Shown: positions 57,380 through 59,960 of the stretch, in pieces
Position numbering within the stretch: the stretch's first letter is position 1
Layout: each line of letters starts with the position of its first letter
From: Eledone cirrhosa
Lineage: Eukaryota
DNA length: 64,000 bases
Direction of reading: 5' to 3'
NCBI GenBank assembly: GCA_964016885.1
Contig: OZ024758.1
Coordinates: forward strand, 19,034,001-19,098,000
The notes under the pieces: model-generated
Database searches by the model: none
Told to the model about the DNA's origin: nothing
The model's input: only the letters and a program-made list of their open reading frames with translations
Made by a program: the position numbers and the translations under genes

Positions 57380-59960
57380 ATGTAACCAATACACATACAT
57401 ATATATATATATATAATTATATATATATATATATGTATACCTATATATATATATATATATATGTATATATATGCATATGTGTATATATATCTGCATATGT
57501 GTATATATATATATATATGTATATGTATATATAAATATTTATATATATATTTGATTATATATATATATATGTATATATAAATATATATATATATATGTAT
57601 ATATAAATATATATATATATATGTATATATATATGTATATATATATATATACATATATATATATGTCTATATATGTATATATATATATATGTGTATATAG
57701 GTATATATATATATATATATATATGTATATATGTGTATATATATATATATATATATATATGTATATATGTGTATATATATATATATATATGTGTGTAAAT
57801 ATGTAAATATATATATATATATATATATATATATATATGTATATATATATATATATATATATATATGTATATATTAGGGCAAACATCACGAGTACTCTAT
57901 CTCAAAATTATTTTTAAAAAGCATTAGAAATGCGCAATCGGTAAAAACTGAATACTAACCAATACGTATTACTAATTTATACTTATTCCTAATTAAACTA
58001 TTTTTCACTGGGAACATTTTGTCACCATTTTCTTTTCATTTTAATAAAATATTTATCTTTATGTATATATATATATATATACATATATATATTTATATAT
58101 GTATATATATATATATATATATATATATATATATGCATATATATATATGTATATATATGTATATATATATATATATATATGTATATATATGTATATATAT
58201 ATATATATGTAAATGTATATCTGTGTATATATATTTATATATATATATATATGTATGTATATATTTAAATATATATATATATATATTTATATATATATAT
58301 ATATATATATATATGTATATATATATGTATATATATATATTTATATATATATATATATATATATATATAAATGTATATATATGTATATTTATATATATAT
58401 ATATATATAAACGTATATATATGTATATATATATATATATATATATATATATATATATATATATATATAAATGTATATATATGTATATACATATATATAT
58501 ATATATTTATATATATATATATATATATATATATATATATATATATATATAAATGTATATATATGTATATATATATATATATATTTATATATATATATAT
58601 ATAAATGTATATATGAATATATATATATATATATATATATATATTTATATATAAATATATATATATATATATATATATATTTATATATAAATATATTTAT
58701 ATATATATATATATATATATATAAATGTATATATATATATATATATATATATATATATTTAAATGTATATATGAATATATATATATATATATATATATAT
58801 ATATATATATATATATATATATATATATATATATATATATATATGTATGAGAACGTGAGGGTATTTTTATAAAATCAATAATAACCGAGGTGTCCTACAC
58901 GAGTCAAAGTATAAAGTAAAGAAGAGGAAATCGAAAATGCAACTGGAGTCTTATTTTTTAAAAATATGTATATATATATTTATTTGGTTCCTTTACGGGT
59001 TTCGCATATATTCTGCTTCTCAAAAGTAGAGTTGAGATGGAGGGTCTGTGATTTTTCTCACATCTCTCTCTATATATGTATATGTATATATATATATATA
59101 TATATATATATATATATATATATATATATTTTTATATATATATATATGCATATGTGTATATATATACATGTATATATATATGCATACGCGTATATATATA
59201 TGTATATATATATATATATATATATATATATATATATATATATATATTTATGCATATATATATATTTATGCATATATATATATGCATATATATATATATT
59301 ATGAATATATATATATATATATATATATATATATATATATATTTATGCATATGTGTATATATATATATATGTGGGCATATATGTATATATCTATGCATGT
59401 GTGTGTATACATCTATATGTGTATATGTATATACATAATATATTTATGTATATATATATATATATATACATAATATATTTATGTATATATATGTACATAT
59501 ATATATATATATATATATATATATATATATATATACATATATATATATATATATATATATATATATATATATACATATATATATATATATATATATATAT
59601 ACATATATATATACATATATATATATATATATATATATATATATATATATATATATATATATATATATATATATATGCCTGTAGCTGACTGTTTGAGGTA
59701 CATGTATATATATATATATATATTTATATATATATATATATATATATATATATATATATATATATAATATATATATATATATATATCATAATCTATAATA
59801 TATATATAATCAAGTAAAAATAACGAACCAAATGACTCGCGTATAATCATGTAATTAAATGAGCTCGCCTGTAGCTGGCAGTAGGAGGTACGTCTACGAG
59901 TATATATATATATATATATAAATATATATATATTTATATATATATATATATATATATATA
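57380..59960. repeat. Extended interrupted (TA)n field with embedded islands
   Basis: Direct sequence; islands at 57877-58058, 58848-59064, 59810-59900. Confidence 0.9.
58991..59026 (-). ncRNA. Minimal hammerhead, U3-A8 variant (family C)
   Basis: Minus strand: CTT-TTGAGAA-GCAgaatataTGC-GAAA-CCCG-TA-AAG. Confidence 0.65.

Follow-up and report, generated by a model that had tools for sequence, protein, structure and literature searches.

Minimal hammerhead motifs are known from the pLTRs of Penelope-like elements (PLEs), where Cervera and de la Pena described them in 2014, including about 1,300 examples with a U3-A8 core pair in Schistosoma mansoni Cercyon (PMC4209133). For the PLE hammerheads of Drosophila virilis, rotifers, shrimp and mosquito, the same paper predicts cleavage as dimers and gives low activity in vitro (PMC4209133), and the dimer model has been reviewed (PMC6765202). 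The 3-8 pair matters in the active hammerhead fold, and the slowness of G17 hammerheads, with rates 8- to 100-fold lower, has been attributed to a C3-G17 pair (PMC3884650). U3-A8 is reported to be active in vitro; the consensus core by which candidates were rejected includes A13 (PMC3088659). In an Anolis PLE, hammerhead cleavage is protein-dependent, in vitro insertion was unaffected by hammerhead mutations, and RNA-seq gave no reads with ends at the cut site (PMC11167929). It is an open question in the field whether cleavage is required of PLE hammerheads at all (Craig 2021, PMC8557442; Frangieh 2024, PMC11167929).

Here, we analyzed a window of 64,000 nt from Eledone cirrhosa (contig OZ024758.1, positions 19,034,001 to 19,098,000), for which the original prediction had described two diverged hammerhead motifs with U3-A8 and had taken the compensated pair as an argument for selected ribozyme function. 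This interpretation is partly supported. Beyond what was predicted, the motif proves to be the hammerhead that a Penelope-like element, hereafter family C, carries as standard.

Results

Hammerhead motifs in the window

Both motifs are as described, with U3 (59023, minus strand, and 27330, plus strand), A8 and the stem II GCA/UGC kept. The first is a decayed minimal type I hammerhead motif at 58991..59026 (minus strand), identified by sequence and descriptor. Read from 59026 to 58991, it consists of a CTT stem I arm, the core TTGAGAA with U3 at 59023 and A8 at 59018, stem II GCA..TGC (59016-59004), GAA starting with G12 at 59003, ACCCGT with loop III at 59000-58995, A17 at 58994 and AAG; the predicted cut lies between 58994 and 58993. 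Sequence and self-duplex energy identify its loop III, CCCG, as a broken palindrome. The second decayed motif, at 27327..27362 (plus strand; sequence and folding), reads CCT, TTGAAAA with U3 at 27330 and A8 at 27335, stem II GCA..TGC (27337-27349), GAA, ACTGGT with CTGG as loop III, A17 at 27359 and AAG. The hammerhead core U4 G5 A6 A9, G12 A13 A14, A15.1-U16.1 and H17 is complete in both.

Each motif sits in a (TA)n-flanked, 5'-truncated pLTR stub of family C, about 210-225 nt long and with 86-90% identity to an intact element. The stub at 58842..59065 (minus strand), set in (TA)n, has 86% identity over 225 nt to the intact element (blastn) and 90% to the majority sequence of the middle subfamily, and that at 27290..27500 (plus strand), ending in (TA)n, has 90% to the intact element and 94-96% to its best relatives in the genome search. 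In the 27330 copy, the second stem I pair is mismatched (C-A), the base being a minority variant (1 among the first 100 matches listed). G7 of the 59023 copy is atypical, as A7 occurs in 100 among the first 100 matches listed. A separate subfamily for this copy was unsupported, its loop II being absent from all 8 further G7 loci examined; judged from these comparisons, G7, the altered loop II and CCCG look like private decay. The loop III self-duplex, -8.3 kcal/mol for CCGG, is weakened to -3.2 kcal/mol in the 27330 copy and lost in the 59023 copy (CCCG, -0.3 kcal/mol), and scored as a double hammerhead, the two window copies reach +3.8 and -0.2 kcal/mol vs -15.1 kcal/mol for the youngest subfamily. 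Both window copies are likely inert, solitary stubs with damaged stems.

No Rfam hammerhead family was present among the 150 of 462 window matches listed, and the 2 Rfam matches obtained for an intact copy (E up to 10) were not to a hammerhead family either. The listed window matches were microsatellite-driven miRNA, and the intact copy matched MALAT1 at E 2.9; both were taken as noise. When positions 3 and 8 were left free, the descriptor matched with a Watson-Crick 3-8 pair in 4/40,000 dinucleotide shuffles of the 237-nt pLTR. The GC content of the window is about 30%.

Copy number and architecture of family C

The genome searched comprised 3.0 Gb in 1,796 contigs. A flank pattern of 33 letters, in which positions 2.2, 2.1, 3, 7 and 8 were left free, gave 4,654 exact matches vs 0 for the reversed control, and a second pattern gave 1,859 further copies from older subfamilies; the youngest subfamily is counted by neither, making 4,654 a lower bound for family C. 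Among the first 100 flank-pattern matches listed, 99 have U3 and 100 have A8, and the bases at positions 3 and 8 are thus not random in other copies. The palindromic CCGG that had been proposed as consensus of stem/loop III was borne out, with CCGG in 61/70 copies and CTGG in 4/70 (copies picked by their 5' half, 3/73 loci having been dropped for indels). The motif is indeed a minimal type I hammerhead with U3-A8, and its palindromic loop III is of a kind that suits dimers.

Upstream of family C copies, the sequence leads into RT and GIY-YIG coding sequence. In 12 regions selected for intact ORFs, the intact unit consists of a hammerhead, about 170 nt, ORF1 (409 aa), ORF2 (775 aa), about 1,050 nt, a second hammerhead and (TA)n, with a motif-to-motif direct repeat distance of 4,679-4,712 nt (period about 4.7 kb). 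ORF2 overlaps ORF1 in the -1 frame, and inverted 5'-truncated partners are common. All motifs in these regions (21/21) have U3-A7-A8, CCGG and the full remaining core. The ORF2 translation contains GTAMGT, YLDD, LPFLD, the linker CGRSNCGTC (CX4CX2C) before GIY-YIG, and the CCHH residues; GIY-YIG scored 29.3 bits vs a Pfam cut-off of 22.6, and RVT_1 was weak (E 0.007, on a broken copy). Judged by its coding sequence and layout, family C is an EN+ Penelope-like element with a hammerhead in the pLTR and with tandem and inverted 5'-truncated copies. It appears to be of Neptune/Nematis type, placed by anatomy, as the trees hold only unnamed homologues; its CX2-5CxxC linker and (TA)n ends are Neptune-clade traits which are common to Nematis and Naiad. 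A non-LTR retrozyme, which would consist of short non-coding tandem monomers, was rejected, as the motif lies in a coding 4.7-kb unit and the short copies, whose flanks are unrelated, are stubs truncated at the 5' end.

In family C, the junction with (TA)n lies at either of two preferred 3' ends, 68 nt from each other (L249:169 and 237). At the end of ORF1, where ORF1 and ORF2 overlap, family C and the related C3-G8 family described below both have a T TTT TTA heptamer (L249:1371-1461; L259 reverse 2316-2409), which we take to match the slippery-site pattern. Its position in the -1 overlap suggests programmed -1 frameshifting. A broken, different Penelope-like RT (FDITMG, GLYRDD) was seen upstream of family C copies (L031:1431-2425; L032 reverse 772-1930), so that PLE families are nested in (TA)n tracts. 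At L249:88-186, a donor-like GTAAAG overlaps the GUA of the cut site, and about 100 nt downstream there is a TAG-containing pyrimidine tract; an intron is unsupported, as neither a spliced copy in the genome nor a joint of this kind in four public sets of contigs was found.

Variation within family C

The middle subfamily contains 44 copies without U at position 3 (27 C, 9 G, 8 A), all with A8, 33 copies without A at position 8 (14 G), all with U3, and 33 copies without A at position 7, among at least 4,654 copies in all. Position 7, called free in the original prediction, does not vary more than the paired positions, with variant counts of 33 (position 7), 44 (position 3) and 33 (position 8). 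No C3+G8 copy was found in the middle subfamily (base at least 4,654) and family C shows no internal 3-8 covariation, the pattern for which a family alignment had been proposed; as expected chance C3+G8 doubles number about 0.1, this within-family test excludes only a sizeable C3-G8 subfamily. The two window copies, from which compensation had been argued, are not independent, both deriving from one U3-A7-A8 master, and they are unable to show compensation because positions 3, 7 and 8 decay alike and C3+G8 is missing.

A pattern requiring C3-G8 with CCGG gave 16 genome matches (control 6), two of them homologous to family C (L120 and L121). Neither was accepted as a C3-G8 ancestor: L120, which was found by the C3-G8 pattern, is a lone double change in the old subfamily whose nearest neighbors are without C3+G8, and L121 is a rearranged junction. 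Only 1 among 222 aligned copies plus the reference has C3+G8. U3-A8 is inherited from the master element and fixed in the master lineage.

Subfamilies diverge from their own majority sequences by 4.4, 3.4, 3.3, 2.8 and 1.1%, their samples having been picked in different ways. From the oldest (4.4%) to the youngest (1.1%), the 10.1-11.1 pair changes from G-U to G-C, and a fourth stem II pair and a fourth stem I pair are gained, with the core unchanged; stems I and II thus have 4 bp each in the youngest subfamily, with G10.1-C11.1, and 3 bp in older ones. In the 3' half, mismatches affect 4/420 core sites vs 41/1,260 other sites, and among A sites only 0/280 vs 10/560 (p 0.04); this deficit was given no weight, in view of the difference in base composition and of a position 7 no less stable than position 8. 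In run X1, possibly the source of the assembly itself, no core position reached 2% variation and six nearby stem, loop or flank sites did, in what is a weak test.

A sister family with C13

Sequence comparison identified three stubs of a sister family, C2, in the window. A C2 pLTR stub at 31472..31662 (plus strand) has a U3-A8 core at 31510 and C13 (GCAA for GAAA), and its inverted partner at 31238..31471 (minus strand) has U3 at 31430 and C13. The third, a decayed stub at 57873..58052 (plus strand) with its core at 57914, has C13 and has lost G5. Intact C2 elements such as L310 (G000:C5:17086500-17096400) encode an ORF1 of 455 aa and an ORF2 of 784 aa; many intact 784-aa ORFs exist, identical over the stretch searched. 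Position 13 is C in 10,911 genome matches vs 124 with another base, and in 28/28 motifs from protein-selected loci. C2 thus departs from the hammerhead core at A13, a position at which substitutions are strongly harmful. Success in the C/C2 clade therefore does not depend on a canonical core, C2 being young, with intact ORFs and C13 in 10,911 copies. Lunse et al. 2017 is reportedly a survey of PLE hammerhead variants. A literature search on A13 substitutions, whose scope did not extend to that survey or to the supplementary files of Craig 2021 and Perreault 2011, found no C13 variant.

ORF2 identity between C and C2 is 56%, and fourfold-degenerate sites are identical at 44/132 (33%), placing synonymous sites near saturation. 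The motif is identical in 30/35 columns, all of U3-A9 included, and two pairs are swapped: the fourth pair of stem II is G-C in C vs U-A in C2, and the third pair of stem I is C-G in C vs U-A in C2. Conservation extends to free position 7, to part of loop II and, with 16-22/30, to the 100 nt upstream. Binomial values for the motif conservation, 1e-4 to 6e-3, are optimistic because the 35 columns were picked after inspection and the upstream 100 nt are themselves fairly conserved. The younger C2 form has longer stems I and II.

Other hammerhead families and repeats

With positions 3 and 8 left free, the descriptor found 12 hammerhead clusters in 260 sequences (993 kb) and 1 hit in the reversed control. 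Eleven clusters have a C3-G8 majority (2/11 from loci fetched with a C3-G8 pattern), one, family C, has U3-A8, and none has a mismatched majority. A related C3-G8 family has the same layout as family C, with 48% ORF2 identity and a homologous ORF1 (E 1e-29), and its C3-A7-G8 hammerhead lies at the same place, about 160 nt before the homologous ORF1. A decayed pLTR stub of this family (84%), in which position 3 has mutated to G, is present in the window at 29983-30180 (plus strand). In the tree, C, C2 and outside homologues form one well-supported clade apart from the C3-G8 family, so U3-A8 most simply arose once, before the C/C2 split. A search of metagenome contigs for homologous loci, which would show the motifs of the closest outside homologues (P0001-P0007), gave none.

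Three more hammerheads with canonical C3-G8 cores occur in the window, in other repeat families, at 49403 (minus strand), 31824 (minus strand) and 27728 (plus strand); those at 49403 and 31824 have a palindromic loop III (ACGT, ATGCGCAT). Part of another repeat forms a perfect inverted duplication at 26962-27083, and relatives of that repeat (L118, L122, L126) have a C3-G8 hammerhead in which stem I is long. Also dispersed in the window is a repeat of about 190 nt with over a dozen copies, one tandem pair included (among them 841-1019, 43041-43429, 32388-32574, 53053-53242, 53611-53791, 54983-55167 and others). It is probably a SINE-like element, and the descriptor found no hammerhead in its window copies.

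Discussion

The motif of intact family C elements is probably a slow, dimer-dependent and possibly protein-assisted ribozyme that would cut after GUA, with the window motif as its decayed copy. Two motifs would pair through the ACCGGU palindrome into stem III (self-duplex -8.3 kcal/mol), and cuts after GUA at both repeats would give a unit-length 4.7-kb RNA with both ORFs. U3-A8 would have come from C3-G8 by a compensated swap before the split from C2. The original prediction of selected ribozyme function holds as far as selection goes, which is evident from the comparison between families only and not from the two copies; the fold appears better supported than catalysis. The conservation of position 7, part of loop II and the upstream 100 nt between C and C2 is more than catalysis alone requires. 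Furthermore, U3 is paired with A17 in the best fold predicted for the youngest copies of family C, position 17 being A in both families, and the pure double-hammerhead fold lies above the best dimer fold by 7 kcal/mol in the youngest and 10 kcal/mol in the middle and old subfamilies. Given C13 in C2 and a U3 able to pair with A17, cleavage may be slow or dispensable. The U3-A17 pair is the mirror image of the C3-G17 pair in slow G17 hammerheads (PMC3884650).

The rival that we take most seriously, while considering it less than probable, is that the C/C2 fold is kept for protein binding, RNA dimerisation or an overlapping pLTR promoter element and that catalysis has faded, so that U3-A8, A17 and then C13 were tolerated. 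The fixation of C13 in young C2 (10,911 matches) and the predicted U3-A17 pairing fit this, as does the conservation of stems, palindrome, A7 and upstream sequence despite near-saturated synonymous sites; cleavage is dispensable for insertion in vitro in another PLE (PMC11167929), and Naiad elements spread without canonical hammerheads (PMC8557442). However, family C retains U4 G5 A6 A9 G12 A13 A14 A15.1 U16.1 and H17 through all subfamilies, positions 3 and 8 are complementary in 12/12 clusters and this pair matters in the active fold (PMC3884650), and C13 may be a tolerated or protein-rescued variant. That the C/C2 fold is a non-cleaving dimerisation or RT-loading signal, or else that C13 marks an undescribed protein-rescued active core, we consider doubtful.

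An unselected motif, in which C3->U and G8->A were ordinary GC-to-AT transitions in the master element and were then inherited, is very improbable. Both changes are indeed transitions toward AT in a window of about 30% GC, the copies decay neutrally, and two copies give no independent evidence. This reading is largely refuted by the 30/35 columns kept between C and C2 against 33% of fourfold sites, together with the two swapped stem pairs, and the stems also gain pairs over the subfamily succession. Short stems (3-4 bp) and the missing Rfam hammerhead match for the intact copy at E up to 10 would even allow for a chance likeness to a hammerhead in AT-rich DNA, to which we attach practically no weight: the related family has a canonical hammerhead at the same position, shuffles matched the descriptor in only 4/40,000 cases, and the architecture is a published one (PMC4209133). 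The dimer-dependent ribozyme thus remains our preferred reading for family C.

Three young, intact, related elements in one genome, with canonical, U3-A8 and U3-A8/C13 cores at the same position, offer a ready-made comparison. In C and C2, stems and dimer palindrome would be retained under selection, with changes at bases otherwise fixed by hammerhead chemistry; if true, this would mean a hammerhead that is being repurposed or has acquired a new core. Should the C/C2 hammerhead have gained a new role or a new core, the purpose of PLE hammerheads would become directly testable in one genome. The C13 sister family is therefore the lead worth keeping, more than the U3-A8 feature itself.

Among EN+ PLEs, the Neptune and Nematis elements of Craig et al. 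2021 share with family C the RT, the CX2-5CxxC linker and the C-terminal GIY-YIG with CCHH, as well as (TA)n targets, an inverted 5'-truncated partner and a hammerhead near the 3' end; an optional frameshifted ORF1, as in family C, is given in the legend to their Fig. 1 (PMC8557442). PAc (Poseidon) of Anolis carolinensis (Frangieh et al. 2024) also has a pLTR hammerhead, and its two 3' ends match two RT start sites, where family C has two (TA)n-joined ends 68 nt apart. The PAc core is C3-G8, overlaps the start codon and was shown to be protein-assisted (PMC11167929).

The natural hammerheads of Perreault et al. 2011 show the same C3-G8 to U3-A8 covariation, stated to be active in vitro, in agreement with the original prediction that the swap is a known tolerated one; their consensus core has A13, and the account of these variants names no C13, which C2 has (PMC3088659). 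The PLE hammerheads of Drosophila virilis Penelope, rotifers, shrimp and mosquito resemble family C in their short palindromic helix III and short helix I, but are described with a canonical core, the description consulted mentioning no 3-8 swap, and in D. virilis, helix II of the motif is long and bulged and the motif lies next to an intron, a feature for which family C gave no evidence (PMC4209133).

Also close to family C is S. mansoni Cercyon, which is likewise a type I motif in a PLE pLTR with U3-A8 and a palindromic 15.2-16.2 region, occurring mostly as solitary truncated copies with some opposite-strand pairs; an identical UUGAAAA core is given in the supplement, in the row S. mansoni(4) (PMC4209133). 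Stem II of family C has 3-4 bp and no extra base after A9, whereas that of Cercyon has 6-8 bp with one, and loop III is CCGG in the former and CG in the latter. Position 17 is A in family C and U in the S. mansoni(4) row, so U3 would be unable to pair there, and family C has a separate ORF1, unlike Cercyon (PMC4209133). U3-A8 in PLE pLTR hammerheads with a UUGAAAA core is thus already published, and the window feature adds one more host.
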